From the NCBI GenBank assembly GCA_965203175.1, contig OZ241867.1, forward strand, positions 768,001-832,000: 64,000 nt of DNA, given 5' to 3'. This document shows, in pieces, positions 3,438-54,493 of the stretch (position 1 is the stretch's first letter; each line of letters opens with the position of its first letter). A model generated the notes under the pieces. That model searched no databases. It saw only the letters and a program-made list of their open reading frames with translations, and was not told where the DNA came from. Source of the stretch: Candidatus Latescibacterota bacterium (lineage in GTDB: Bacteria; Latescibacterota; UBA2968; UBA8231). The position numbers and the translations under genes were made by a program.

Positions 3438-3644
3438 GTGCATACAGAACGCGAAAATACCTTGGACGACACCGAGCGGCTGCAACTCGCCCGCCAAGCC
3501 TTTGCCGACAACTACGCCCGCTGTTTCTGGTATATGCGCCGCGACTTGGAAATAGGCGTCGAAGATATACCCGAGATCGCCCGCGGCTTGCGCCTGCACG
3601 GAGGTCGGCAGGGATTTATTCTGGCCGCCCGCCTATGCCCCTAA
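3438..3644 (+). CDS. Small protein, putative antitoxin partner of downstream nucleotidyltransferase
   Basis: 68-aa ORF overlapping the toxin start; RCFWY motif. Confidence 0.6.
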   Translation: MHTERENTLDDTERLQLARQAFADNYARCFWYMRRDLEIGVEDIPEIARGLRLHGGRQGFILAARLCP

Positions 3645-4426
3645 GCGCGTTTCAGCAATCCATCCTGCGCTTGTTAGCGCAAAACCGCAGCCCAGAAAGC
3701 TATGTAGCTGGTGCTACGGTCCTGCACCAAATTCCCGACAGTCCGCGTTTTTCCGATGACCTAGATATGTTCCACGACGCGGAAGACAGCGTCGCGCGGA
3801 GTGCCGCGTTCGACGTTGCCGTCCTAGACGCGAATGGCTTTGCGATCGAATGGATTTTGCGGCAGCCAGCCTATCTCAGGGCCATCGCGGCGAAGGAAGG
3901 GCAGTCCCTTAGATTGGAGTGGGCTCAGGATTCCGCTTTCCGCTTCTTTCCCGTTGAACAAGACGAACTATGCGGCTACCGCCTGCACCGGGCCGACGCG
4001 GCCACCAACAAGGTGTTGGCTTTGGCCGGACGCCGGGAGGCGCGCGATTTCATCGACGTTCTGCACTTGGACAGCAGCTATCTCTCGTTAGGAGCGCTGT
4101 GTTGGGCAGCCTGTGGGAAAGATCAGGGCTATACGCCGGATTTCTTGCTCAACCAATTGAATCGCAACGCGGCTTTTACCCAAGAGGAAATCCAGCGACT
4201 AGACTTGGCGATCCCCCAGAAGCTACCGGATCTGAAGCGTCAGTGGTGCGCGGCAATGGAGCGGGCCGGTAGATTGCTGACCGCACTGCCTGCGAACGAA
4301 GTGGGTTGCCTCTATCTGGACAGACAACAGTCCGCTCCTGTGCAACCCGACCCAACACACGAGGCATTTGCCTCATTGCAACGACATTTTGGGTCCGTGC
4401 GCGGAGCCTGGCCTACGATCTGTTGA
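3635..4426 (+). CDS. AbiEii/AbiGii (DUF1814)-like nucleotidyltransferase toxin
   Basis: YVAGATVL...RFSDDLDMF and KVLALAGRREARDFIDV motifs. Confidence 0.78.
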   Translation: MPLSAFQQSILRLLAQNRSPESYVAGATVLHQIPDSPRFSDDLDMFHDAEDSVARSAAFDVAVLDANGFAIEWILRQPAYLRAIAAKEGQSLRLEWAQDSAFRFFPVEQDELCGYRLHRADAATNKVLALAGRREARDFIDVLHLDSSYLSLGALCWAACGKDQGYTPDFLLNQLNRNAAFTQEEIQRLDLAIPQKLPDLKRQWCAAMERAGRLLTALPANEVGCLYLDRQQSAPVQPDPTHEAFASLQRHFGSVRGAWPTIC

Positions 4427-10375: not shown

Positions 10376-11179
10376 TTAACCAACCAATAGCTGCAGCGCG
10401 GTTTCCACGTTCAACATCGCCGCGTCTTCCTCCCGTTCCAAAAACGGACGCACATCGGCCGCCACCTGATCCCACTCCAGCACCCGTAGCCGGCTGCCGA
10501 CCACTTCCCGCCAAGTCCGCTCCGTTAGTGCCTCGCCAGGCCACTGCGTCTGCTGCAACGCCGCATTGAGTAGAGATAGATTGGGCGCAGGCCACGTCCG
10601 GTCACTCAAGTACCATATCAAGTCGTATAGATCCCGCCCTTTGGTATAAGGGCGCTGTAGGATCGCATGTAGTTTGCCGGCTAGCAGGGAAGCTCGGTCG
10701 TGATGCTGGAGCCGCAGTGTCACGTGTCGGCGCACCAAACGGGTCTCCAGCACGACACCAGTTGGCGGGTTCGTATCGACCTCGATGCGCACGGAGAGAA
10801 TTGCGTCTTGATGCGGAGAAAGACCGGCCTCGTACAGCAGGCCCTTGAAGCGCACGAACGCGCGGTGGACGGTCTGCCGGTCGTTTAAGCCGAGCCCGAC
10901 TTCGTACCCCTCGCGAGCAAATTCTGCGCGAATGGCTGTTAAATAAGCGCGCAAATCGTAGAGAGCCGGATCGCCTTCGAGCGTAAAGTCGAGGTCTTCG
11001 GAGTAGCGCGGTAGCGCAAAGAGAAAGCGCAGGCTAGTGCCCCCCTGAAACGCCAGCGGCACCATCGCCCCCGCGCGCTGTAAAGCATCCAAGATGCGGG
11101 CTTGCAAGTATTCGCGCAGGATGTTGCGCCCCTGCAAGGAATCCGCCGCCTGCACGAGTTGAAACAGGTGATACTTCAT
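10376..11179 (-). CDS. abiEii: AbiEii-family nucleotidyltransferase toxin (type IV TA)
   Basis: FQGGTSLR, RYSEDLDF, KLHAILQR..KGRDLYDL; ATGA overlap with antitoxin. Confidence 0.9.
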   Translation of the reverse strand: MKYHLFQLVQAADSLQGRNILREYLQARILDALQRAGAMVPLAFQGGTSLRFLFALPRYSEDLDFTLEGDPALYDLRAYLTAIRAEFAREGYEVGLGLNDRQTVHRAFVRFKGLLYEAGLSPHQDAILSVRIEVDTNPPTGVVLETRLVRRHVTLRLQHHDRASLLAGKLHAILQRPYTKGRDLYDLIWYLSDRTWPAPNLSLLNAALQQTQWPGEALTERTWREVVGSRLRVLEWDQVAADVRPFLEREEDAAMLNVETALQLLVG

Positions 11180-11814
11180 AGCTGCTCGTAGCCCAACGTC
11201 TCGTCTTGGGCTAGTGAGCGAATGCACCGCACGGCTCTCAGTAACTTGGGACGGGCGGCGATAGCAGCCAATCTATCCAGTTCCGCTAGGTCGAGGCTCC
11301 CCCAGTCGAGGCGCAGCTCATTGATATAGGCAGGTGCATCACCACTCGGCTGCAGATAGATCAGATCGAGCAGTGCCTTTTCTGGCGCAGCGACAAAAGC
11401 CAACTGGCCATGTGCCAACTCCACGTGTTGATAGCCGTAGAGCAGATCGGTCTTGAGGTGGCGAAAGGAAAAGCGACCTAGCGGCGTCTGGCGGAGCTGC
11501 GGACGTCCGGCCGTCACACTGGTCACTTCCGGCACGTACTCGGGAATCACACCAGCGTGGGCCAACGCCGACAGACCGCTGACATACGAGCCGCGCACCA
11601 GTCGATTGGCGACGAGGAAGGGATGGGGCGCGGTCTGGCGGTAGGGCGGCGCCAGCGCGTAGAGCCCGCGCCGTAGCTGGTGCAGTCGTCCAGCTTGGGT
11701 CCAGCGCACGAGCTGCCGCCGCATATCGCTTGGATTTACGGACCCAGCCAAGAGCAGGCCGGTTTCAAATACCGGCTCATCGGCCACAATGGCGAGCAAT
11801 TGATCGAATTTCAT
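11176..11814 (-). CDS. abiEi: AbiEi-family antitoxin / wHTH regulator (type IV TA)
   Basis: LRRGLY, SYVSGLSAL, PEKALLDLIY motifs; directly upstream of abiEii. Confidence 0.85.
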   Translation of the reverse strand: MKFDQLLAIVADEPVFETGLLLAGSVNPSDMRRQLVRWTQAGRLHQLRRGLYALAPPYRQTAPHPFLVANRLVRGSYVSGLSALAHAGVIPEYVPEVTSVTAGRPQLRQTPLGRFSFRHLKTDLLYGYQHVELAHGQLAFVAAPEKALLDLIYLQPSGDAPAYINELRLDWGSLDLAELDRLAAIAARPKLLRAVRCIRSLAQDETLGYEQL

Positions 11815-34185: not shown

Positions 34186-34824
34186 TCACAATATCCCGTA
34201 GCGATCAAAAACCTCCCTCGGCGACTGCCCCGCAGCCAATTCATCGCGCACGACGTTTTCCCCGGCGAGCTTTTCCATGGCCTTCTTGTGGACTTCGCCT
34301 TTAATCGCCGTCGGAATCACCGCCACGCCGTCGTAGTCAGCTAAAATAAAATCGCCAGGGTGAACCTGCGCGCCGCCGCAGGTGATGGGCTGGTTGATCG
34401 TTTTAGCCAGGATACGGCCCGCCGAGTCGAGCGGCGAATAGCCTTTGCAGAAGCAGTGGTAGCCCATGGCGTTCATCTGGCGCACATCGCGGACCAAGCC
34501 GTCGGTGAGCACGGATTCGACGCCGCGAGCTTGGGCAGCCGTGGAGAGAAGCTCGCCCCAGAGGCCGGAGCGCTCTTCGCCGTTAGTCGCAATGACGAAA
34601 ACGTCGCCGGGGCTAGCTTGATCGTAGGCGGCAAAAATTTGACCGTAAGGATCGGGGTCGGGACTGGCATCGGCGTACGCGTCGATGGTGAGCGCCGGAC
34701 CGGCGATGAAGGCGTCAGGGCGGCTGGGCCGGATATCGGGCGTCATGGCCTGATCGCGGTAGCCGAGTTGGTCCATGATGTCGGTGACTAAAGCCGAGTA
34801 GATAGGCTTCCATTCGTCGTACAT
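34186..34824 (-). CDS. RraA / HMG-aldolase family protein
   Basis: WGELLSTAA, DGLVRDV, V.PGD.I.AD.DG motifs. Confidence 0.85.
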   Translation of the reverse strand: MYDEWKPIYSALVTDIMDQLGYRDQAMTPDIRPSRPDAFIAGPALTIDAYADASPDPDPYGQIFAAYDQASPGDVFVIATNGEERSGLWGELLSTAAQARGVESVLTDGLVRDVRQMNAMGYHCFCKGYSPLDSAGRILAKTINQPITCGGAQVHPGDFILADYDGVAVIPTAIKGEVHKKAMEKLAGENVVRDELAAGQSPREVFDRYGIL

Positions 34825-34842
34825 TTTTAGTCTCCTAGTTCC

Positions 34843-34876
34843 TAGCATTCCTCCAACAGTTGTTGGAGGAATGCTA
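34843..34876. repeat. Perfect 16-bp-arm palindrome at the downstream border of the low-GC defence gene
   Basis: TAGCATTCCTCCAACA-GT-TGTTGGAGGAATGCTA. Confidence 0.9.
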
Positions 34877-34912
34877 CTCCTTATGATTGCGATCTCCATT
34901 CACTGTTCTATA

Positions 34913-37900
34913 TCACCGTTCGTATTCATTCAGATCTGTGCGAATAGCGTAACTTTTTTCAAGACACATCTGATCTATCAGATCAAGGCATTTAGCTGCC
35001 CATTCATCACTTTGATGTTGGTGGTATGTTCGTAAAATCAACTTTGACACCATCGGAACATCACCTGCCCGACTCGTACGCATATCATTCGCCTCTTCGA
35101 TAAACCGTTCGAGAAATTTTTTACATACAATATACGTAATGCCAGGTAATCGGTAAGAAGATTCCTCAAGAAGGTGAAGTAAGGAAAACGAGTTTTCTTG
35201 ATAGGCTGCACTATCGCAAAACTTGACTATCAGATTCTCGTAGAATTCTAGAGGTTGTTTTTCCAAATTTCGGAAGCACTCTGCAGCTTTTCGACGAACC
35301 TCAATATCATCGTCATCAAAAAACAGCAGAAGTTTTTGCCCTGACCATTGCCGGTACTCCTCTTGGCCGATGTTGGCAGATGCCACTTGAGCCACCCCTA
35401 CTCTCTGTGACGAGTTGCCACGGAGTGCTTCTTCCACAAGATCCTCGGCATCGTCGCGCTGAAGGAGCAAAGCAATGCTCACCAATCGAGCACCTCCCTC
35501 ACTTGCTTCAGGAAGATTTGATCGAAGCATTCTCTCTATGACGGTTCTAAGGTCTTCGAAGTGCTCGTGCAGGCCGTAACGAATAAAATGCCCTATGTAT
35601 GGGGTTGTCAGTAAACGGTCGTCGCTATGTTGGTTGTCCCGAGATTCGATGAGACTGAGAAACTGCCTTAAAGCAAATCTCGATTCCTGACCGAGAATAG
35701 CTAAAAGAATAGAACTTGTACAAGCCCGAACGGCCAAACTGTTGTCGTTGACCAACTGGTCAATAGTAGGACGAAAGCGATCGATGTATGATCTATTTCG
35801 TTGTATAAGATTACGAATGGCCTCAGCAGCGTGGCCACGTGTTGTATTGATACCATGTGTAAGAATATCACCTCCTCCGCTCGTGGCTTCTTCACTCCAC
35901 AACTCTTTATCCGGATCCGAATTGGTTGCCAGCCAGTCGAGCATCTGCACAGCATCATCGGGAAGTGGTTCTTCAATTAATCCCAATAGGTCTGTAATCG
36001 CTTTCCCACAACTATCGCGGTATTCATTATACGCCTTGCGACACACTTCTAATTTGAGTTCGATAGAGCACTCTGTCTCTTTCAGACCATTGAGGGTATG
36101 CTCTATGTAGGAGGGATGGGTACCCAACGGAAATCTAAGGCTCAAGCGGGCAAATCTTTCCGGCTCTTGCTTCACGAACTCCTGTAACATCTGGGCAAGC
36201 TCCGGCGCTCCACCCTTTTCAGGATTCTCCCAAAGGTATTTTCTCTCTTCTGAATCATATTCTTGGATTGCTCTTAGCCATTGCTCATCTGTCATTCTCT
36301 CTGCGGCTATCTTTTCAATTGGGGAGCCTACTTGATACACTTCTAATCTTCGCGGAGAGGAATCTGGTGATCTAAATTTTCGTTCAAGTTCCATATAACG
36401 GCTCTGAGCATTCCTGCTCCTCAATTCAACTGGAATGCTAGACAGTAGATTAAAACAGGCATGTCCTCTCCGCTTGTACCCTTCAGGAGTGCGCTCCCAA
36501 GGTGAGATGTAATCCAGAATAGCCTTTTCGAGCTTTGTACAGTTCTCACCGGAACAAAGCGGAGTAGCTGCTTCTATTAATTGCATCGCTATCCAATAAG
36601 GGTTATCGGAGTATCCGCATTGAAATCGCCAAGTCTTGTCGCATAGGTCGGACACAGCTTCATTGGCAAAGTGCTTAGCACCTACTGTATAAGCACGAAG
36701 CAGGAGAAAATTTGCTAGATAGGTATCACGGCTACGTAGCTCTGCAAGAATCTTGCCAATACTATCTGACCTAGTCTCGGCTAGCTTCTCTACTGCTATA
36801 GCGGCTACATCCCTGCATGTTCCACGGATTGAAACACTTTCGCCGTTAATCAAGTGCCCCCAAACAGCATCCCGCTTGGGGACGGTGGAATTTTCCCTAT
36901 AGACGGCTTCATCAGCAATTTTTAGAATTACAGGTAGGACATGCTGTGCAAACTCTTCAGGAGCCTTGATTGCAGAGTCGTGTATAAGTTTTGGTCCAAA
37001 ACCGTCATGGTTGAACAGATCATTCCAGTTAGGTTCACCTGTACCATCCTGAGCCGCTCGAATAACGGAAAGACATCTTTGTAGCCAATGAGCAGTTACT
37101 TCGACAATCCAATCAGGACGTGTCTTATCGAGTCCATACATCATGCTCCAAAACGTGCTATTGACTGCGATCGGTCCAACTGCATTGTCCAAAGTTCCAT
37201 CGTCAATCAGATTCAAAAATAAATCAAAGAACCTTCGACTATTTTCAAGAGTAGCCCATTGCATAACGTAACTTAACCGCTGAGGCCATTCGCCTCCTTT
37301 TCCTACGAATGGCTCAAGGAGTTCAGCGACTCTGTCCCCTGAGTGTTCCTGATGAAATCGAGTATAGTTCACTCCCATGTTGACTAGACCGTTGTTCTCG
37401 GATGTAAGCCAATCTACAATCAGACCTTTTTCATCCGTAATCTGAAACCAATTCTGAGACATATGAAAACGGTTCCAAACCAAAGACGCGAATTTGTCTG
37501 TATTTGGTCTGTTGCTCTTAATTGCCTCAAGTTCAGATTCGATCCATGGTGAAATTACGTTCCATTCACCTTCTTCTGGATTAGGCATCGAAAAGGCGAG
37601 AGCAATGGCAAGGTCCTTCAAATGGTACCTAATCCTTTCGTCTCTCAATAATCCACTGAGTTCTCTACAATACCACCCTCGATCAGCATCACTAAGATAA
37701 ACGAGGACTTGCCGCACCTGTGCTCTGCGAAATAGATGTTGTTCTGATGGCACAAGGAATGACACCAATGAATCTCCCCTTGCCATGAAGGCGCGGGCGA
37801 AGCAGTAATCGAAAAAAGTCTCATGGCCGAATCCATAACTCCTTCCATCAAACGAAAGCACTCCCTCTGACGCCATCTGGACAAGACAATCATTCGGGAA

Positions 37901-39460
37901 CTGGTCTAGTTTCTCTTTCGGAACTGAAAGCCGTTGGGATTCAGTCATTGCGTCGCACAAAACCTGGATTATGTTGGCCCAATTATCAGAGGAGAAAGCA
38001 GTGCGCTCATTGACTGCATTGCGTTTCTCATCCCAGTAAAGATCAAACAGGTCCTTTTCCGAGAAGAACTCAGGCTGTGAATCGGAGTTATAATTGGCGT
38101 CAAGGAACAGCGACAGATTCTGAGGAAGGCATAGCAATTCTAATTGCTTTGCATCAAACAGATCAGTGTTGAAGCTACCACCCCCAAGCGAGGATTTCAC
38201 CTCGTCCAAAGAGAAGTCCGTGACTGAGATTTTGGCGTCAACCTTAGCGAGAAGGCGACGCAAACGATGATCGTTCTCCCAATCAAATTCTCTACAAACA
38301 ACCACTATATGTAATTTTACTCTTTCACGTAAACCTCGTACCTCTTTCAAAAGGTCTTCCACGACATCAAAGAAGTCTGAACTGCGGCCAGAAGTCGTAC
38401 TAACGGCATCAAGCTGGTCAATAATGAGCACCGCTTCACCTGATGTGGCTTTAGCTGCTGCCTCCAATACTAGGGCTGGCGATTCCTCTAATTCAAGACT
38501 TTCCCCCAACTTTTTAGTGGACGATACCGGGTCTATTCTATCTAATCGAAAAGCGAGTACCGCAACAGGATCATTGCTTTGATGAAGAGCCTCCACGCAT
38601 TCGATGACACACCCGGTCTTTCCACCACCTGCCTTGCCGGTTACAACGCAGTCGCTGCCTCTAGGGACAGGGCCTTTGATCTTTTCAAGAAGCTCCTTAG
38701 TCGATGAACGAGGAATGAGGGAGTCTTGAATCAGCCTTCGTTTTGTGCTGTCAAGATAGCGACCTGTTGCTTCAGAGATAAGCGAGAGGGCATCACTTGG
38801 TCTGGTAAGTCGCCGCAATGAGAAGCCCTTGTCCGAAAGGTATGAAATCAGATCATCCCAGTTGATGCACTTATGAATTGAGTCTTCAGCAAAATTACGG
38901 AGAAAGTCACAGACTTCCGGACTACTAAGAAACCGCGCTTGCAGCAACTCTCGCACTTTATCTTCAAGCTCTCGTTCATCGATTGTGCTGACCTCTATGC
39001 GATGAAGTAATTTATATGCCGTGGCTGTGTCAGTTTCCCAAATACCTTTGAGTCTTTCGAGGGCTTCCTTTTGAGTCTGAGCATCAACAAACACTGACTC
39101 AAATTCCTTCTGATTCTTTGAATCAATAGCCCGCTCCGTTAGCACTTTTAGCTCTGGAGCGTCACTACCTGAAGCAAAAACGAATCGTGTGTTTTCGCTT
39201 GCAGAAAGCTGCTCAAACATCACCTGTAGTATGCTCCGAAGATCAGATAGATTCCACTTGCCTTCTGGATGACTGCGCTTTGCCTGATGTAGCTCTCGAC
39301 AGTCTCCTACAGCGACCACAAATTCGGCTTTATCGAAATTCGGATCCTCAATTCGTATACTGTCGGCCTCTTTATCGATAATCCGTACTAACTGACGGAT
39401 CGTCCACCACGATTCGTAGCGATTTCCCAGCTTGTTAGCGGGACCACCAGGCAACGGCAC
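34913..39460 (-). CDS. Avs/AVAST-like antiphage protein: N-terminal PD-(D/E)xK-type nuclease, STAND NTPase, helical-repeat sensor
   Basis: GNRYE…IED…EF…HQAK N-domain; Walker A GKAGGGKT; Walker B VLIIDQLD; HETFFDY; long helical C-terminus; low GC; GGAGG RBS. Confidence 0.7.
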   Translation of the reverse strand: MPLPGGPANKLGNRYESWWTIRQLVRIIDKEADSIRIEDPNFDKAEFVVAVGDCRELHQAKRSHPEGKWNLSDLRSILQVMFEQLSASENTRFVFASGSDAPELKVLTERAIDSKNQKEFESVFVDAQTQKEALERLKGIWETDTATAYKLLHRIEVSTIDERELEDKVRELLQARFLSSPEVCDFLRNFAEDSIHKCINWDDLISYLSDKGFSLRRLTRPSDALSLISEATGRYLDSTKRRLIQDSLIPRSSTKELLEKIKGPVPRGSDCVVTGKAGGGKTGCVIECVEALHQSNDPVAVLAFRLDRIDPVSSTKKLGESLELEESPALVLEAAAKATSGEAVLIIDQLDAVSTTSGRSSDFFDVVEDLLKEVRGLRERVKLHIVVVCREFDWENDHRLRRLLAKVDAKISVTDFSLDEVKSSLGGGSFNTDLFDAKQLELLCLPQNLSLFLDANYNSDSQPEFFSEKDLFDLYWDEKRNAVNERTAFSSDNWANIIQVLCDAMTESQRLSVPKEKLDQFPNDCLVQMASEGVLSFDGRSYGFGHETFFDYCFARAFMARGDSLVSFLVPSEQHLFRRAQVRQVLVYLSDADRGWYCRELSGLLRDERIRYHLKDLAIALAFSMPNPEEGEWNVISPWIESELEAIKSNRPNTDKFASLVWNRFHMSQNWFQITDEKGLIVDWLTSENNGLVNMGVNYTRFHQEHSGDRVAELLEPFVGKGGEWPQRLSYVMQWATLENSRRFFDLFLNLIDDGTLDNAVGPIAVNSTFWSMMYGLDKTRPDWIVEVTAHWLQRCLSVIRAAQDGTGEPNWNDLFNHDGFGPKLIHDSAIKAPEEFAQHVLPVILKIADEAVYRENSTVPKRDAVWGHLINGESVSIRGTCRDVAAIAVEKLAETRSDSIGKILAELRSRDTYLANFLLLRAYTVGAKHFANEAVSDLCDKTWRFQCGYSDNPYWIAMQLIEAATPLCSGENCTKLEKAILDYISPWERTPEGYKRRGHACFNLLSSIPVELRSRNAQSRYMELERKFRSPDSSPRRLEVYQVGSPIEKIAAERMTDEQWLRAIQEYDSEERKYLWENPEKGGAPELAQMLQEFVKQEPERFARLSLRFPLGTHPSYIEHTLNGLKETECSIELKLEVCRKAYNEYRDSCGKAITDLLGLIEEPLPDDAVQMLDWLATNSDPDKELWSEEATSGGGDILTHGINTTRGHAAEAIRNLIQRNRSYIDRFRPTIDQLVNDNSLAVRACTSSILLAILGQESRFALRQFLSLIESRDNQHSDDRLLTTPYIGHFIRYGLHEHFEDLRTVIERMLRSNLPEASEGGARLVSIALLLQRDDAEDLVEEALRGNSSQRVGVAQVASANIGQEEYRQWSGQKLLLFFDDDDIEVRRKAAECFRNLEKQPLEFYENLIVKFCDSAAYQENSFSLLHLLEESSYRLPGITYIVCKKFLERFIEEANDMRTSRAGDVPMVSKLILRTYHQHQSDEWAAKCLDLIDQMCLEKSYAIRTDLNEYER

Positions 39461-39648
39461 GGCTATTTCCTCCCTCGAATATCAGAGTGACAAAATTCCA
39501 CAGCATCAATTGATAACAGACGAAAGACAAGTACGACCAGTCCAATTGTCGCCACAGTGTAGAGACAATCTCCCCATCCGAGAAACGGCCGGCAAAACGG
39601 ATCATCTACTTGTCCGTTTCTGACTTTCTTTGCAGTCGCACAACCGCC

Positions 39649-39893
39649 TCACGGGACGCGACAATCCGCACGAACTTGGGCTACTGCTTCGTCAACAAGG
39701 GCTTGGGCTTCCTCAGCCGAGAGGTGTTTGTTGCGTTCCCAAATGGAGTCAACGGTCTCCCAAAAGATCGCTTGGCGGACCGCACGGACGACGAAACGCG
39801 ATAGGTCGCCCCTTTTCCCACCCGTTCGGGCCAAATAGCTCCGAACGGTGCGGTCCCCGTATCTTCCGAGACGACGATGCTCCAACGGGTCAT
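39649..39893 (-). pseudogene. Frameshifted ribbon-helix-helix protein (XACb0070-like antitoxin)
   Basis: MTRWSIVVSEDT / DRTVRSYLARTGGKRGDLSRFV…EAQALVDEAVAQVR, joined by an apparent +2 insertion in the G run at ~39855-39858. Confidence 0.7.
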
Positions 39894-39920
39894 CAATAGC
39901 CTCTCTTCGAGTTTTGCAGT

Positions 39921-40073
39921 CAAGTACGGCCAGCCCAATTGTCGCGACACTGTCGCGACAATATCAGCTTCGCGGAATGCCTTGGCAAAATTTATCATCC
40001 GAGTGAGAGCCGAATAGCTGTAACCTCGCCCAAATTAGGCAGTCAATTGTTGCGACAGTGTCGCAACAATCTC
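39921..40073 (-). pseudogene. DUF1016 (YhcG) N-terminal domain fragment with internal stop
   Basis: EIVATLSQQLTA*FGRGYSYSALTRMINFAKAF.EADIVATVSRQLGW resembles DUF1016-N. Confidence 0.65.
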
Positions 40074-40204
40074 AGTTCTGGAACAGCCTGTTCCAGAATT
40101 TCTGCGACAGGCTGTCGCAGAAATTCAAAATGGCAACAGCTTGTTGCCATTTTGCGTTCACCTCCGAGACGACGATGCTCCAGCGGGTCATCAATAGCTT
40201 CTCT

Positions 40205-40537
40205 TCAAGTTTTGCAATCAAGTACGACCAGCGCAATTGTCTCCACAGTGTAGAGACTCTCCCAACTCTCCCCGCTCGGATCCGCAGCAAGATGTGCGAC
40301 AACATCCATACCTTCAACAGCGCGTCGTACCTGATTAAAATCGGCAATATCGCACAGGATGAATTTCTCGTCTGGAATTTCGAGCGTCCATGACCCCGGA
40401 ACGCGAACAGATGGCTCCAATTTGTAGTCGAGTGCATACGCATCGTACTTTTCCGGTTGTTCTTTCAGCCGTTTGTATGTCATGTAACCAATCTGCCCAG
40501 TAGCGCCTGTAACAAGCACCCTCTTAGGTGTAACCAT
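40205..40537 (-). pseudogene. 3'-truncated NAD-dependent epimerase/dehydratase
   Basis: VLVTGATGQIG, CDIADF, VVAHLAADP, then homology appears to end at ~40255 inside a palindromic repeat. Confidence 0.75.
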
Positions 40538-40584
40538 ACGTTTATTTTTCTTTCGTTTATGGGTGTTCCTCCATTACAACGTGC

Positions 40585-41877
40585 CTATTTCCTGCGTCCC
40601 CCATTAAAAGCATCTGGCTTCTCGGTACCCGAAGGCCAGTACCCACTCGGATCCTCGCCCCACGGCGTCCCACAAACTTCCGTCAAAACCCGCCACTCAG
40701 ACGCGCCCATAACCTCTGGATGAAAGACAAAGCGCTTGAGTCCAGCCGCCTCAGACGCCCGCAAGATGCCGAGCAAATCGCGCGCGGGCATGGGATCACC
40801 CGCGTGCGGCGTGCGACCAGTCGAGACCCAGCAAATCACCTTATCGACACCAGCCGCCTCTATGGCCCTGCGCGTTTCCCCGTACACGACCTCGCTGAAA
40901 AACTCGTCGGGAAAGCCCGCCTCCAAGTCAAAAAGTGTCCGCACCTGCGGTAGCTTGATGCCAAAAAGCGCCTGCACCACGGCAAAAGCGTCTTCTTCCG
41001 TTAGCCCCGGATTCCACTCCCCAATTGTCTCCACCCAGCGCGCCACTGTGCCATAAAGTCCGTCGAACCCGCGATGCCAGTAGTAGTGCTTGGGCAGTAT
41101 ATAATCAAAGTATCCGGCCATCCGCTCATAGTCCTGCCCGGTCAACCCAGAAAAGACAGCCGTGCGCGGAATCCCACCCAACTCGATCTTGCGCGAGGCC
41201 TGATCGACTATTGCGCGAGCGTCTTCCCAAGAGCGGCGCGACTTCTCCTGCCGCATCCGCAACCAATACAACCCATCCTCGTCGAGGTCGATCAAATTCA
41301 ACACCGAAAACAGGCCACCTTGGGCGAGGTAGCGCACCCGCTGGGGCGTCAGCCGACACAGGGCCTGCTGCAGATGGTCAATACCCCGCTGCATCCGCCC
41401 GACATCGGCCCCCATGCCAGCAAAAAGCTGATCTTCGCCGGGCCGAAGTTCCAGCAACTCCCCGCCGTGGTGGAACGCCAGCTCGTAGTGGTTTTCGCCG
41501 GGGCCGTCGACAATGACGCCGTGGACCTGCGGATAGAACGCGATCAAATCCTCCAGCCCAACCAGCCCACCGCGCCCCATCCCAAAGGTCATAATCTGCC
41601 AGCCACGCGCCGCTGCATCGTCCATCATGCCTTGGAGCTTTTTCTCTTTTTCTAGATCGCGGGGCGTATCCTCCGGCGGCTCGACGCCGTGCTCGGCGTA
41701 GAGCTTGGTATTGACCGGATAGCTGGAGATCAACGAACCATCGTCCTGCTTAAACTGCATGCGGCCGACGATAATGCCCTCGACGCCGCCTTCTTCCCAA
41801 GCGTCGAAGCGCTGTTGGTAGCCTTCGAGCCAGTGTTCGAGCGGCTGGTCGCTGTGGGTGAAAACCCAAAATTTCAT
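40585..41877 (-). CDS. Hypothetical protein (430 aa)
   Basis: Long ORF with host-like codon usage, AGGAGG RBS, in operon with amidohydrolase. Confidence 0.8.
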   Translation of the reverse strand: MKFWVFTHSDQPLEHWLEGYQQRFDAWEEGGVEGIIVGRMQFKQDDGSLISSYPVNTKLYAEHGVEPPEDTPRDLEKEKKLQGMMDDAAARGWQIMTFGMGRGGLVGLEDLIAFYPQVHGVIVDGPGENHYELAFHHGGELLELRPGEDQLFAGMGADVGRMQRGIDHLQQALCRLTPQRVRYLAQGGLFSVLNLIDLDEDGLYWLRMRQEKSRRSWEDARAIVDQASRKIELGGIPRTAVFSGLTGQDYERMAGYFDYILPKHYYWHRGFDGLYGTVARWVETIGEWNPGLTEEDAFAVVQALFGIKLPQVRTLFDLEAGFPDEFFSEVVYGETRRAIEAAGVDKVICWVSTGRTPHAGDPMPARDLLGILRASEAAGLKRFVFHPEVMGASEWRVLTEVCGTPWGEDPSGYWPSGTEKPDAFNGGRRK

Positions 41878-43852: not shown

Positions 43853-46024
43853 TCACGTCACGCATAGCCTGAGCCGCAGCTTTTCGTTCAACTTTTCCAC
43901 GAACACATCTTTGTTCGGCACAGAGGGATTGTTCCGCATGATGAGATTTTTCCAAGCGGCGCGAATTTCGGTTGGCGAGAATGTACTTTCCAACAACCAG
44001 CCCAATGTTTCGTTGCATTGCCGGCAAAACGTTTCGCTGTCGTTTGTGTCAATAGTGTCTAAAGGCGTCCACGGAGCGGACGGTTTGTTGCCTTCGAGAG
44101 CGAAAACCAAAACGCTGTCGTGCCGGATTGAGTTCAAGTTGCGAATATGTACTGAGATGGGATGTTCGGAGTACACTACGTAAGCATTCATCAGCCTAAA
44201 TCCGGCACTTTTGAGCGCCAAAGTGAGTTCAGCCCACGCGCTGGGATCCCAGTGGTGAAAAGTAAATACCATCCGCCCGGTCTGTTTCTTTAAGACGCGC
44301 CCGCACTCTGCGAAAATTCCCGCGAGTACCCTCATAAAATTGCTAACACCAGCGGTCGCTTTTGTCGCAACAGCACTGTCGGATTCGTCGTAACTCCACT
44401 CGGCCTCGTCGGGAAGCAGGCGCGTCAGCCACACCCGAAAAAAAGCCGCCAGATTGCTGTATTGCACACTGTCGTAATAGGGAGGATCGGTCACTATCAT
44501 ATCTACAGAATGGTCGTCGAGAGGCAAACTCTGCGAATCGCCCTGAATGAGCCAAAACCGGCTCCGATCACGCACGAGATCGGCCTGATTGAAAACTTCA
44601 ACGCCATCATCCGCTTCTCCCGGTATCTTGACTAACTCCCTTTTGCCGTCTTCCCCAATCTTCCGTTCAACAGGCAATACCGACCACTTGCGTCCCCGCT
44701 CAATCCGATCGCGAAAGAGCAATTGTAGGTTGCCGGACGACTTGCGAGGATTGACTGGGTTGTTTTCCAGCACCGTGTATTGAAACGAATAGGCGTGCAA
44801 AGCGAAAACGTGCCGAATCGCACCTGGACGGCGTTTGTTCCAACCCTTGTATCCGCAGAGCATTGCATTGAACTCTAAAGACGTGGACACAAGCATCCCA
44901 AGGGTGAGTCTATCTATACCCGCGTAGTCGCGAAGTTGCCGAATCGCTTGGTGCAAGTACAGTAGCTGACGAGATGAAAAAACGTCGAGATATGAACGGA
45001 CATTGTGCCTTAGCAGATCACCGGATTTAGGGCCGTCATGTACCCTAAAATCCTCCAACGGCCCGAAGTCCAGTTCGCTACGCCGCTCGTCGGCCCGCTT
45101 GATTCGCGCCAAATCTTCTTCACTAGGCGAGCGAAAAAAGTTACCGTGCTCGGGGCAGGTCGCAACAATCGCAATCGGCGTATAGCGCGCATAAAATGGC
45201 AAGTCGAGCAGTTCCTCGTACTTCTGACCGCAGCTAGGACACTCTTTTTCAGCTTTGGTAATCAGATCTGTAGTTGCACCGACCATTCTGGTCAGCGGAG
45301 ACAACTTTTCGACGGCGGTCTTCTGTCCATTTTGATTGCGAAAAATCTCCCCGCTCTCAGGGCAAATGCTGATTGTTGCGTCGTCCTCATGTCGCAAATC
45401 GTACTGATCAATCTGCACGACATTCCGACAAGCGCATTTTTTACGCAGCCCGTGTAGCAAATATTGGATATCCACAGTCTGCTCACAGGTTGGACATTCG
45501 GTCTGGAAATAAGGCCCCAAGCTATCGTGCAAATCGGCGAAGAACCGATCAAAAACTACTCGCAAACCCGCCAACTCGACCTGAGTGAGTGACGCTCGGG
45601 CCTGCACAATCGGGATGGGGTCTATATCCGCACCGATGACGTTCGCGCCGAGGCGAATCGCTTCGTGCAGGGTTGTGCCACCTCCCATCATCGGGTCAAG
45701 CACGGTCATGCCTTCTAGCCCGCCAGGTGCGTAGTAATCGCGACACTCATGGTCAGCCGCAAATTGCTTGAGTATGGTGCGAAATGTGGACCCGCATCGT
45801 CGCGCCCACCACTTATGCAGATACGTGTTTGGACGAAAGAGGTGTTTGTTGAACACCTCCTGACGGGAAAGGTCGTTGACAAATTCCTCGGGAAAGGCTC
45901 GATCTATACTGAGACTGTGTTCCGTTTGCCTCGGACGAATTAGTTCGTCCAGTGTCAACTGGCGTACGTCGCTCACAACATCGGACGATGGCTTGATCTT
46001 TTTAGACGATGAGTATTCGGTCAT
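43853..46024 (-). CDS. Amino-DNA methyltransferase with Zn-ribbon insert (DUF1156-like), orphan
   Basis: HKWWARR, motif I DPMMGGGT, Cys pairs CPTC/CAC/CPSC/CPEH, motif IV TDPPYYD, FTFHH. Confidence 0.82.
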   Translation of the reverse strand: MTEYSSSKKIKPSSDVVSDVRQLTLDELIRPRQTEHSLSIDRAFPEEFVNDLSRQEVFNKHLFRPNTYLHKWWARRCGSTFRTILKQFAADHECRDYYAPGGLEGMTVLDPMMGGGTTLHEAIRLGANVIGADIDPIPIVQARASLTQVELAGLRVVFDRFFADLHDSLGPYFQTECPTCEQTVDIQYLLHGLRKKCACRNVVQIDQYDLRHEDDATISICPESGEIFRNQNGQKTAVEKLSPLTRMVGATTDLITKAEKECPSCGQKYEELLDLPFYARYTPIAIVATCPEHGNFFRSPSEEDLARIKRADERRSELDFGPLEDFRVHDGPKSGDLLRHNVRSYLDVFSSRQLLYLHQAIRQLRDYAGIDRLTLGMLVSTSLEFNAMLCGYKGWNKRRPGAIRHVFALHAYSFQYTVLENNPVNPRKSSGNLQLLFRDRIERGRKWSVLPVERKIGEDGKRELVKIPGEADDGVEVFNQADLVRDRSRFWLIQGDSQSLPLDDHSVDMIVTDPPYYDSVQYSNLAAFFRVWLTRLLPDEAEWSYDESDSAVATKATAGVSNFMRVLAGIFAECGRVLKKQTGRMVFTFHHWDPSAWAELTLALKSAGFRLMNAYVVYSEHPISVHIRNLNSIRHDSVLVFALEGNKPSAPWTPLDTIDTNDSETFCRQCNETLGWLLESTFSPTEIRAAWKNLIMRNNPSVPNKDVFVEKLNEKLRLRLCVT

Positions 46025-46099
46025 TTTGCGTCCCTTCGCGGACACACGTACCATATTTTGCTGCGTGCAATCATAGCTTCCCGGTATCCGCTCGGCCCC

Positions 46100-53189: not shown

Positions 53190-53678
53190 TCACGCCGAAC
53201 TGACGCCTCCCATCTTGCAGACTTCCTTCCACTCCTGCGCGGTGACCGGCTGAATCGAGAGCCGCTGACCTCGTTGCACCACCCGCATGTCGGCGAGCTT
53301 GTCGTTGGCCTTGAGGTCGGCAAGGTGGACAAACCGTTTGAATCTGCGTTTCCACTTCACGTCGAAAGAGAACCAGCGCGGCTCATCCTCAGTGGATTTT
53401 TCGTCGTAGTAGTGGTGCTTGTCGTCGAATTGGCTAGGGTCGGGATACCCCGCTCTTGTAATCGTCGCGATTCCAGCAATCCCCGGCTCGTCGCAATTGG
53501 AGTGATAAAAAAACGCCAACTCCCCCTTCTTCATGTCGTCGCGAATGAGATTGCGCGCTTGGTAGTTGCGCACCCCTCGCCAGTAGCCCGTGCTTTGCGG
53601 ACGCTGCTTTAACTCGTCAAAGGAGCACTCGTCGAATTCGCACTTGACGAGCCAGTACTTTTTTCCCCGCTTGCTCAC
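53190..53678 (-). CDS. EVE domain-containing protein
   Basis: YWLVK, W.GVRNYQARN, FFYHSNC, RLSIQPV. Confidence 0.9.
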   Translation of the reverse strand: MSKRGKKYWLVKCEFDECSFDELKQRPQSTGYWRGVRNYQARNLIRDDMKKGELAFFYHSNCDEPGIAGIATITRAGYPDPSQFDDKHHYYDEKSTEDEPRWFSFDVKWKRRFKRFVHLADLKANDKLADMRVVQRGQRLSIQPVTAQEWKEVCKMGGVSSA

Positions 53679-54493
53679 AACCATTCCTCGACCACTTCCC
53701 GCGTCTTTGCTATACCCTCCCATTCGTCTCCTGGACTAGAAAAAATCAGCGAGTATGGCCCGGCAAATCCCGCATCATTGGCCAACTGGAGACAGTGATC
53801 AAAATCCTCGCGGTCCATCTGCCCCACTGCGGTAAAGTCGGCCTTGGCGTGTACGGAAGTCGCCCTCGGCAGAATCGCCGCCAGATCGCGGTATTTGTCC
53901 GGCCCCTTGAAGTTGCCAAAGTCAGCGCATAGGCCGACCTCGCCGTCGCACAAGTCGAGGACCGCATTGAGCGACTCAACGCTCGTACCCAGCGTCCGAA
54001 AATTCTCCGTCATCACCCCAATACCCAAGGTGCGACCAAAGCTGGCGAGCGTCCGCAAATTCGCCGCGCTGACCTGCACGGCTCCGCCGTCGCTTGCCTC
54101 CCCGGCGATCACCCGCACGCACTGCGTGCCACAGCGGGCGGCAATCTCCATCCACTCGCGCACCCAAACCACTTCATTTGCGCGTCGGGCCGCATCGGGA
54201 TGCGCAATGTCCCCAGCGTCAATTAGCACGCTGAAGAGCCCGACGCCGCTGTCGGCAAGTGCTTGCCGCAATTGGCTGATATAATCATCGTCGAGCCTAG
54301 GAAAGTGGAAGTGGCAAATCTCCAACAGGCCGATGCCGCGTGCGGCAAGCTGCGCCGGTAGCTCTAACAAGGTGAGATCGCCCTGCCCGGTCCCTTCTAG
54401 CACCGGCTCGCCCTTGGGGTCGGGCCACTGGTACATCGACGCTCCTAACGTCCTGTGCAAGCTCCATGTCGAGGTCGCTATACGCGTCATCAC
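53675..54493 (-). CDS. Sugar-phosphate isomerase/epimerase (xylose-isomerase-like TIM barrel)
   Basis: TEN, ADFGNF, VHAK metal-binding motifs. Confidence 0.82.
   Translation of the reverse strand: MMTRIATSTWSLHRTLGASMYQWPDPKGEPVLEGTGQGDLTLLELPAQLAARGIGLLEICHFHFPRLDDDYISQLRQALADSGVGLFSVLIDAGDIAHPDAARRANEVVWVREWMEIAARCGTQCVRVIAGEASDGGAVQVSAANLRTLASFGRTLGIGVMTENFRTLGTSVESLNAVLDLCDGEVGLCADFGNFKGPDKYRDLAAILPRATSVHAKADFTAVGQMDREDFDHCLQLANDAGFAGPYSLIFSSPGDEWEGIAKTREVVEEWL

Follow-up and report, generated by a model that had tools for sequence, protein, structure and literature searches.

The DNA analysed here, referred to below as the window, is a 64,000-nt stretch of the genome of a Candidatus Latescibacterota bacterium (GenBank assembly GCA_965203175.1, contig OZ241867.1, positions 768,001 to 832,000), and at 40046-40154 it carries four perfect DNA palindromes set back to back among fragments of genes of the YhcG/DUF1016 family. 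These inverted repeats had been described in an original prediction made from the letters alone, and we recovered them at the coordinates claimed, with the same centre spacing of 29, 24 and 29 nt; a fifth unit, at 39938-39962, had been missed. In what follows, type 1 denotes the 357-aa form of YhcG and type 2 the 377-424-aa form. The palindromes are:

Palindrome 1, 40046-40070: 12-nt arms and a 1-nt centre (40058); minus-strand peptide IVATLSQQL; first coding palindrome of a type-1 YhcG N-domain fragment.
Palindrome 2, 40076-40098: 11-nt arms and a 1-nt centre (40087); minus-strand peptide (I)LEQAVPEL; type-2 YhcG unit.
Palindrome 3, 40096-40126: 15-nt arms and a 1-nt centre (40111); minus-strand peptide EFLRQPVAEI; in intact type-2 YhcG genes, its homologue encodes the family motif.
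Palindrome 4, 40126-40154: 13-nt arms and a 3-nt centre (40140); the retained type-2 YhcG ATG (40148-40150, minus strand) lies in one arm; its inner part is similar to the YhcG unit core.
Palindrome 5, 39938-39962: perfect, with 12-nt arms and a 1-nt centre; peptide IVATVSRQL, directly 5' of L-G-W; second coding palindrome of the same type-1 fragment as palindrome 1, the two centres being 108 nt apart as in intact genes.

The gaps between palindromes 1-4 are 5, -3 and -1 nt, so that neighbouring units touch or overlap; no spacers separate them, and the arms differ from unit to unit. The array is thus neither a tandem duplication nor a CRISPR array of near-identical repeats and unique spacers, as the prediction had held. 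The ACA-n-TGT core it had described as shared by all units is present in units 1 and 4, with ACAG-n-CTGT in units 2 and 3 instead. Imperfect relatives of the window palindromes, likewise missed by the prediction, lie at 39545-39569 and 40236-40257. The whole 6,579,469-bp genome contains 93 perfect palindromes (arms of at least 10 nt, loop of at most 4 nt) and, because five of these fall within 217 bp here, the cluster is not attributable to chance. Folded as single-stranded DNA, the 121-nt array forms four hairpins in a row on either strand; the plus strand reaches -45.6 kcal/mol, compared with an average of -14.9 ± 2.3 kcal/mol for shuffled arrays (z = -13.3), and none of 200 shuffles folds as well.

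The pieces of coding sequence that bear these palindromes, given with their open reading frames (ORFs) where relevant, are:

40043..40150, minus strand: 35-codon ORF MATSCCHFEFLRQPVAEILEQAVPELRLLRHCRNN, a type-2 YhcG stump that keeps its ribosome-binding site (RBS) and ATG and consists almost entirely of palindromes 4 to 1.
39924..40076, minus strand: fragment B, type-1 YhcG N domain, residues 64-113 of 357 with one internal stop (tblastn E 3.4e-10).
40163..40257, minus strand: fragment C, a copy of a 95-nt repeat with 88% identity to 39865-39959.
39525..39606, minus strand: fragment A, type-1 YhcG N domain, the third such piece; contains the imperfect palindrome at 39545-39569.

Searched against 39927-40076 (minus strand), the PF17761 profile scored 41.6 bits over profile positions 46-95, above its cut-off of 32.8, which makes fragment B a member of DUF1016_N; the separate ORF pieces of the fragment score under the cut-off. 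The prediction had correctly placed 40046-40070 inside such a fragment and read its minus-strand peptide as IVATLSQQL. The YhcG_C domain, which is a PD-(D/E)XK nuclease domain, has no above-cut-off match in the whole genome (best 12.2 bits, E 0.48); all DUF1016 pieces of this genome are therefore wrecks, and the window holds fragments rather than a gene. The GGAGGTGAACGCAAAATG upstream of the 35-codon ORF is identical to that of the intact genes of two other genomes, G002 and G014. In fragment C, the outer 3-4 nt of the palindrome at 40236-40257 are missing where it meets a truncated epimerase gene. We consider it almost certain that the array consists of YhcG/DUF1016 coding remnants. Among all centres in the genome with at least 11 of 12 pairs (64 with a 1-nt and 70 with a 3-nt centre), YhcG-type units are limited to the window locus and positions 1399668 and 1399849, and both places are DUF1016_N fragments. 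At the second place (C1 1399500-1400300, locus L003), tandem DUF1016_N fragments carry one coding palindrome each, with 11/12 pairs at 1399668 (IPQTLSVEL) and perfect pairing at 1399849 (IGPTLSDQL).

Pieces of 39461-40300 were found again in 22 of the 40 related genomes searched, and the syntenic site was compared in 13 genomes of the genus and the window (14 sites). Perfect palindromes of the same kinds were present at this site in 12 of the 13 genus genomes, and no two of the 14 sites had the same gene content. Several sister genomes carry intact YhcG genes there, of two types with about 30% mutual protein identity, such as a 377-aa protein at locus L029 and proteins of 357 and 424 aa at locus L026, for which both YhcG_C and DUF1016_N were matched using Pfam; the sister-genome YhcG proteins fall under the PADLOC candidate PDC-S02. 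In the type-1 gene, an in-frame 25-bp perfect palindrome encodes IVATLWRQL, directly 5' of L-S-W-S-H. The type-2 gene contains an in-frame 27-bp palindromic unit that encodes AILRQAVAEL, and a 41-bp unit with 19-nt arms that encodes AKEFLQQLVAEIPW, which is the conserved family motif. The whole window array is present again in G021, at 96% identity. Contigs of four public runs, rather than reads, were also considered, and these break at palindromes; X2 is identical to the window over 39400-40105 and 40112-40257, and the joints in the public-run contigs are consistent with arrangements of the sister genomes. An assembly fold-back artefact was rejected, as the units are present in independent assemblies of five genomes and in contigs of two runs.

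Across the YhcG family, the segment before L-x-W-x-H is spelled by a DNA palindrome, and many members have two or three tandem units. For type 1, we sampled one genome per species (80 loci) using search patterns taken from the C-terminal domain, and the search was therefore not biased towards palindromes. Five loci without a usable frame, three with wrong frames and L066, which has a diverged motif, were excluded, and the remaining 71 loci together with the G002 reference gave 72 genes. Pairing at the two sites of these genes, compared with synonymous resampling, was:

Site before L-S-W-S-H, 72 type-1 genes: mean 10.35 of 12 Watson-Crick pairs against 5.0 expected; perfect in 19, at least 11 pairs in 39, p ≤ 0.05 in 68.
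Site 36 codons upstream, 69 type-1 genes: mean 9.03 of 12 pairs against 4.68 expected; perfect in 8, at least 11 pairs in 26, p ≤ 0.05 in 55.

The pairing profile along the type-1 gene has two peaks only, of 8.93 and 10.37, where the average over the gene is 3.06 ± 0.86, and at least 11 of 12 pairs are reached in the N part of 58 of the 72 genes but in the C part, which is twice as long, of none. A second sample was drawn from the phylum: of about 140 matches listed when 151 genomes were searched with the profile, 50 domains were analysed. The best palindrome of each domain is perfect in 19 of the 50; 31 reach 11 pairs or more and 39 reach 10 or more, and 31 domains exceed synonymous permutation (P ≤ 0.05). 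With few exceptions, these palindromes are found at much the same spot, no more than a few tens of residues before L-x-W-x-H, and the peptides they encode are unrelated (for instance PIVPPGAQL, TILSTWREL, PNLRSIGDL and ILYTLCREL). The longer domains inspected have two or three tandem units. Ten records from other phyla were examined as well. Pairing reaches 11 or more of 12 in seven of them (E. coli, Legionella, Phocaeicola, Arthrobacter, Leptolyngbya, Pontibacter and a Citrobacter plasmid), 10 in an eighth and 9 in a ninth; the tenth (L177, Curtobacterium) was unreadable, its match being split over two frames. In E. coli, yhcG lies beside nanQ and has three tandem units, two of them perfect and one with 10/12 pairs, and the yhcG region was found in 4,468 of 5,426 complete E. 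coli genomes. Overall, perfect or near-perfect units of 23-41 bp precede L-x-W-x-H in Bacteria of many phyla, in E. coli yhcG and in one Methanosarcina genome, with the caveat that these homologues are related and many have spread by transfer, so that the counts are not independent events.

The arms of these palindromes change in step, and the encoded peptide changes freely. Over 71 aligned sites, changes on both sides occurred at 9 of 13 pairs, amounting to 114 cells against 34.0 ± 4.4 after shuffling (none of 500 shuffles was as high); these covariation counts are inflated by relatedness, yet at least 8 distinct arm variants are perfect palindromes. In the true register 91.6% of cells pair, compared with 25-54% in slid controls. 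To see whether the pairing is of a DNA or an RNA kind, consider the mismatches in pairs 1-10: at one site there are 13 G:T, 9 A:C and 41 others, and at the other site 12, 14 and 53, so G:T is no commoner than A:C, both are far rarer than the remaining mismatches, and no RNA-type preference for wobble pairs appears. Pairing also extends up to a centre of 0-3 nt, and both observations point to a constraint at the level of DNA rather than RNA. Two other identities for the units were rejected: an operator of a dimeric regulator, because the inner bases covary instead of staying fixed, and a terminator, because the units have no T run and lie within coding sequence.

At the protein level, AlphaFold2 gave a poor model of the 357-aa protein (pLDDT 64.7, pTM 0.38), which places the two type-1 sites within helices (H59-77 and H99-108); both type-1 palindromes are thus predicted to encode helices. 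When this model was searched using Foldseek, only weak matches to nuclease domains were returned (NucS/EndoMS and Can2, best E 1.4e-3), with no match for the N domain, and a search of PDB sequences with the YhcG profile returned none at E ≤ 0.01.

The array region has a GC content of 45-52%, against about 60% in its surroundings, and the low-GC stretch is bounded by an RraA-like gene (34186-34899) and a gene for a 430-aa protein (40585-41877). It is a variable defence islet between these two conserved genes. Read on the minus strand from 40537 to 34913, it holds the 5' part of an epimerase gene, the three DUF1016 N-domain fragments, a ribbon-helix-helix gene and a STAND NTPase gene. The features other than the YhcG pieces are:

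40205..40537, minus strand: truncated NAD-dependent epimerase gene, which keeps residues 1-102 of the 271 in relatives.
39649..39885, minus strand: ribbon-helix-helix gene (RHH_6, E 8.8e-13), a variable cassette between fragments A and B.
34913..39460, minus strand: 1515-aa STAND NTPase, GC 45-47%, the variable cassette of this genome; matches the PADLOC candidate PDC-M54A.

Another perfect palindrome (34843-34876, 16-nt arms, 2-nt centre), also missed by the prediction, lies in the 88 nt that separate the stop of the STAND gene from the RraA-like gene; its centre, CAACA-GT-TGTTG, is similar to the cores of YhcG units. When the other loci collected to that point were searched for exact matches to its 11-letter core, no further copy was found. 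Elsewhere in the window, other defence or DNA-modification genes include two AbiEii-family nucleotidyltransferase genes (3635-4426 and 10376-11227), a gene for a 733-aa protein with a DNA methylase domain (43853-46054) and one for an EVE-domain protein (53190-53723). DUF1016 genes are known inside type I restriction-modification loci. In a Latescibacterota genome (G001, locus L131), the DNA directly upstream of a DUF1016 gene is 69% identical to E. coli type I restriction methylase/S-subunit genes, which fits this placement. A DNA-level search of E. coli that started from a Latescibacterota gene matched nothing but type I restriction genes of the flanks.

Letter-by-letter comparison with relatives gave the order of the window array: the type-2 RBS and ATG, identical to those of G002 and G014, then three units, then CTGAG, then the first palindrome of the type-1 fragment, which runs on for 108 nt to its second palindrome (39938-39962) and ends just past it. 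The same stump is found in G012, G020, G021 and G022, with two or three units and differing continuations. G012, G014 and G021 have the composite array a second time, in the space separating the 430-aa gene from the epimerase gene, and 12 nt of microhomology mark the joint between this copy and the end of the 430-aa gene. As a result, the epimerase gene of G021 has a direct copy of the array on either side. The points at which the window ceases to match its relatives are all at or inside a palindrome: at 40044 for G021, after palindrome 2 for G022, inside palindrome 3 for G020 and G012, and inside palindrome 4 for G002, with the epimerase deletion at 40257. Judging from these comparisons, the array originated when coding sequence was deleted and fused, and did not grow by accretion. 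At loci L028, L029 and L030, a type-2 YhcG remnant is fused to the end of the 430-aa gene at a common 12-letter stretch, GCAGGAAATAGG, and this joint reads as an illegitimate recombination junction common to three genomes.

Breakpoints at units are also seen in E. coli. One O157:H7 allele of yhcG has a 78-nt in-frame loss that removes two of the three units, a widespread truncated yhcG ends one letter short of the end of the third unit, and in another strain the end of an IS1 adjoins the third unit four letters in. The number of units in E. coli yhcG is polymorphic (loci L169, L179, L180, L181, L182 and L183): most alleles, including K-12-like ones, have three, the O157:H7 deletion allele has one and a 76%-identical paralogue has two. 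Truncated yhcG genes end at or in the third unit, once beside IS1 and once beside another transposase gene.

The explanation we favour, with a probability of about 0.6, is that the palindromes are kept by template switching, without further function. During replication, one arm of a quasi-palindrome would be copied from the other, which would be the main means of keeping the arms complementary, and such arm-to-arm copying would produce self-maintaining palindromes in a tolerant part of the YhcG protein. As the units are alike and the same on both strands, they would presumably also act as breakpoints for deletion, duplication and fusion, by which coding sequence could have collapsed into the four back-to-back units of the window. 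Several differences between relatives bear on this. One orthologous unit is imperfect in G002, perfect in G014 by way of its left arm (R to Q), and perfect in the window by way of its right arm (L to P plus a silent change). The counterparts of palindrome 4 in G020, G021 and G022 are imperfect; the window unit differs from them by an adjacent AA/TT double difference in the outer arm (40129-40130) that completes the pairing, and both forms of this difference are seen in the public-run contigs. The centre letter of the units alternates between C and G. Clustered arm changes that raise complementarity, together with inversion of the centre, are what template switching would be expected to leave behind, if the direction of change, taken here from an unrooted comparison, is right.

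Such a process has precedents. Passages of one study describe template switching at inverted repeats in Proteobacteria and argue that it conserves them (PMC5941160), and excerpts of two others concern the correction of quasi-palindromes by replication template switching (PMC8794818, PMC8604942). The YhcG units resemble the quasi-palindrome correction treated in those passages of PMC5941160 in that arms appear to be perfected by copying, multi-nucleotide changes raise complementarity and the centre can invert. Unlike the repeats described there, which are non-coding and belong to one bacterial group, the YhcG units occupy one coding site across phyla, the protein follows the DNA, and the units occur in tandem.

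Other observations weigh against template switching as the whole explanation. Palindromy outlasts complete turnover of the peptide in subfamilies with only about 30% protein identity, which is much to ask of mutational bias alone. The palindromes of one gene are more alike than those of different genes (20.29 compared with 17.82 of 25 positions; none of 5000 permutations was as high), and this likeness could come from copying between units or from a common function. At the innermost pair, A:T (41) and G:T (27) are frequent and C:T (1) is not, a preference for purines for which we offer no explanation. In 11 of the 50 phylum domains there is no clear palindrome, and it is therefore dispensable for some members. 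The direction of the arm changes rests on few genomes and no rooted tree, and no contig listed from the public runs spans the centre of palindrome 3 (40105-40112).

In another explanation, selection maintains the palindromes as a cis-acting DNA element of YhcG genes that forms a hairpin or cruciform, and template switching is only how it is repaired. We consider this possible and, on the sequences at hand, rather unlikely. It might serve for the exchange of N-terminal modules or neighbouring defence cassettes, regulate the nuclease gene, or be a target that the nuclease recognises. It would account for deep conservation at one position of the domain despite peptide turnover, for the strict Watson-Crick covariation with no wobble preference, and for the two sites of a gene evolving in concert. 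The N-terminal module has also been swapped between lineages: a YS-type module is present in 12 of 71 genes and needs 10 changes on the C-terminal tree (approximately unbiased (AU) test, p = 4.5e-8). In the hot spot, cassettes are flanked by palindrome-bearing fragments, as the G021 epimerase gene is by array copies. Two plasmid records have a DUF1016 gene directly after, and overlapping, a recombinase-type gene: in L174 (Sulfurimonas plasmid) the upstream gene is a 'recombinase family protein' and in L175 (Citrobacter IncA/IncP plasmid) a 'site-specific integrase', and the overlap with its end suggests one operon. A table in PMC9881135 lists DUF1016 as enriched beside genes undergoing programmed inversion. 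However, no recombinase, HUH nuclease, reverse transcriptase or integrase was found among the 46 larger window ORFs scanned, a hairpin does not need perfect pairing up to a 0-1 nt centre, and the feature is missing in the 11 domains mentioned above. The pair L078 and L101 (type-1 loci, from the series L039-L118) has about 90-100% identity downstream of approximately codon 160 and 33-83% upstream, the N-module with both palindromes having been exchanged; in this one near-identical pair examined, the 3' boundary of the swap lies 30-100 nt beyond palindrome 2 rather than at it, which lends no support to crossing-over there. More specifically, the N-terminal YhcG palindromes may be a hairpin or cruciform conserved by selection across phyla, which could be either an exchange site for modules and cassettes or a structure sensed or acted on by the encoded PD-(D/E)XK nuclease, a proposal that we regard as doubtful at present.

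The remaining explanations fare worse. Hairpins in the mRNA, with a role in processing, stability or translational control, are improbable: the units do lie in transcribed coding sequence, and at the innermost pair G:T is common and C:T rare, but pairs 1-10 have the mismatch pattern described above, pairing to a 0-1 nt centre is unusable for an RNA hairpin, and the units remain perfect in stop-containing stumps. In addition, Rfam 15 gave nothing at gathering score over 34500-41000, the only hit being the SpF25 small RNA with 25.9 bits against a threshold of 48 (E 0.61). In the original prediction, self-complementary stretches of about 25 nt were added singly, by fold-back synthesis or site-specific capture, and left behind a record-like or hypervariable array. 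Parts of this proposal held up. The array is indeed tied to DUF1016/YhcG genes; homologous loci vary in how many units they contain and in what these consist of, and arms vary between units; and fold-back copying is probably involved, in the form of template switching between arms and not as the addition of new units. Capture itself is very hard to credit, since every unit has an in-frame homologue in intact genes, the array is nearly unchanged in G021 (96% identity), such units occur in this genome only at two DUF1016 fragment loci, and the recombinase, HUH nuclease or reverse transcriptase expected nearby is absent from the 46 ORFs scanned, leaving no candidate enzyme among them. We think it just as improbable that the units are small mobile palindromic elements, akin to repetitive extragenic palindromic (REP) elements, miniature inverted-repeat transposable elements (MITEs) or the Rickettsia elements, that entered YhcG genes without breaking the reading frame. 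Their palindromic form, short length, preserved frame, occasional tandem arrangement and location in a tolerant part of the protein would suit such elements, but in place of the many dispersed, mostly intergenic copies of a REP, REPIN or MITE family the units are confined in this genome to DUF1016 fragments. They also occupy one homologous position, including the family's own conserved motif, in subfamilies only about 30% identical, and the other, dispersed palindrome families of this genome are different from them. Those families, GTAGGGG...CCCCTAC and AATCCTTTAGG...CCTAAAGGATT, are scattered in the genome, look REP-like and are unrelated to YhcG units (examples at 691058, 1561966, 1912736, 2700904, 4038530, 6391869 and 6519595, and further at 1363243, 2250856, 3383600, 2464806, 3269304 and 4974139).

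Several known systems share features with the YhcG units. Integron attC sites are longer, imperfect, contain extrahelical bases and need the integron integrase. The islet is like an integron cassette array in having variable gene cassettes separated by structured palindromic sites of variable sequence, whose recognition could be structural; unlike attC, the window units are perfect, 23-31 bp long and derived from coding sequence, and there is no integrase among the ORFs scanned. REP elements are intergenic, occur in tens to hundreds of copies per genome and are linked to RAYT transposases, whereas YhcG units are coding and found at two loci in this genome, with no REP-linked (RAYT-type) transposase seen among the same 46 ORFs of the window. 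YhcG units are nevertheless like REP elements, bacterial interspersed mosaic elements (BIMEs) and REPINs (PMC3116915) in being short, sometimes clustered and rearrangement-prone. REP-type elements are short palindromes, in some cases clustered, at which insertion sequences and rearrangements are frequent. Palindromes within genes are also on record. Mitochondrial genes of Nematomorpha carry coding palindromes of up to 284 bp (PMC6649704, in part), and Rickettsia palindromic elements of about 100-150 nt are mentioned, citing others, in a passage of PMC4316617. Like these, YhcG units are perfect or near-perfect inverted repeats in coding sequence with both arms translated. The Nematomorpha and Rickettsia palindromes are, as far as those passages go, lineage-specific and found in many unrelated genes, whereas units of 23-41 bp in one family, at one homologous position and in many phyla characterise YhcG. 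Our full-text literature searches found no report of coding palindromes in YhcG/DUF1016, nor any under coding inverted repeats with template switching; supplements and subscription papers were outside their scope. In excerpts of PMC4316617 and PMC11341870, DUF1016 is treated solely as a mobile-element gene.

YhcG/DUF1016 is a very widespread, uncharacterised nuclease family, a candidate phage-defence gene that occurs in restriction-modification and mobile-element loci. That a fixed piece of its coding sequence is kept palindromic across phyla, with the amino acids following the DNA, makes it an unusually clean natural case of a force at the nucleic-acid level shaping a protein. In practical terms, the palindromes break short-read contigs and mark the truncation points of YhcG genes, which is relevant to the annotation of defence islands. 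If template switching alone maintains them, the family would be a ready system for measuring how far this process steers protein evolution and gives rise to tandem coding units and rearrangement hot spots. If they are instead a functional DNA element, they would be a new cis-acting feature of a defence gene, and if the nuclease acts on the palindromes that encode its own helix, the sequence of the protein would be tied directly to its DNA site.

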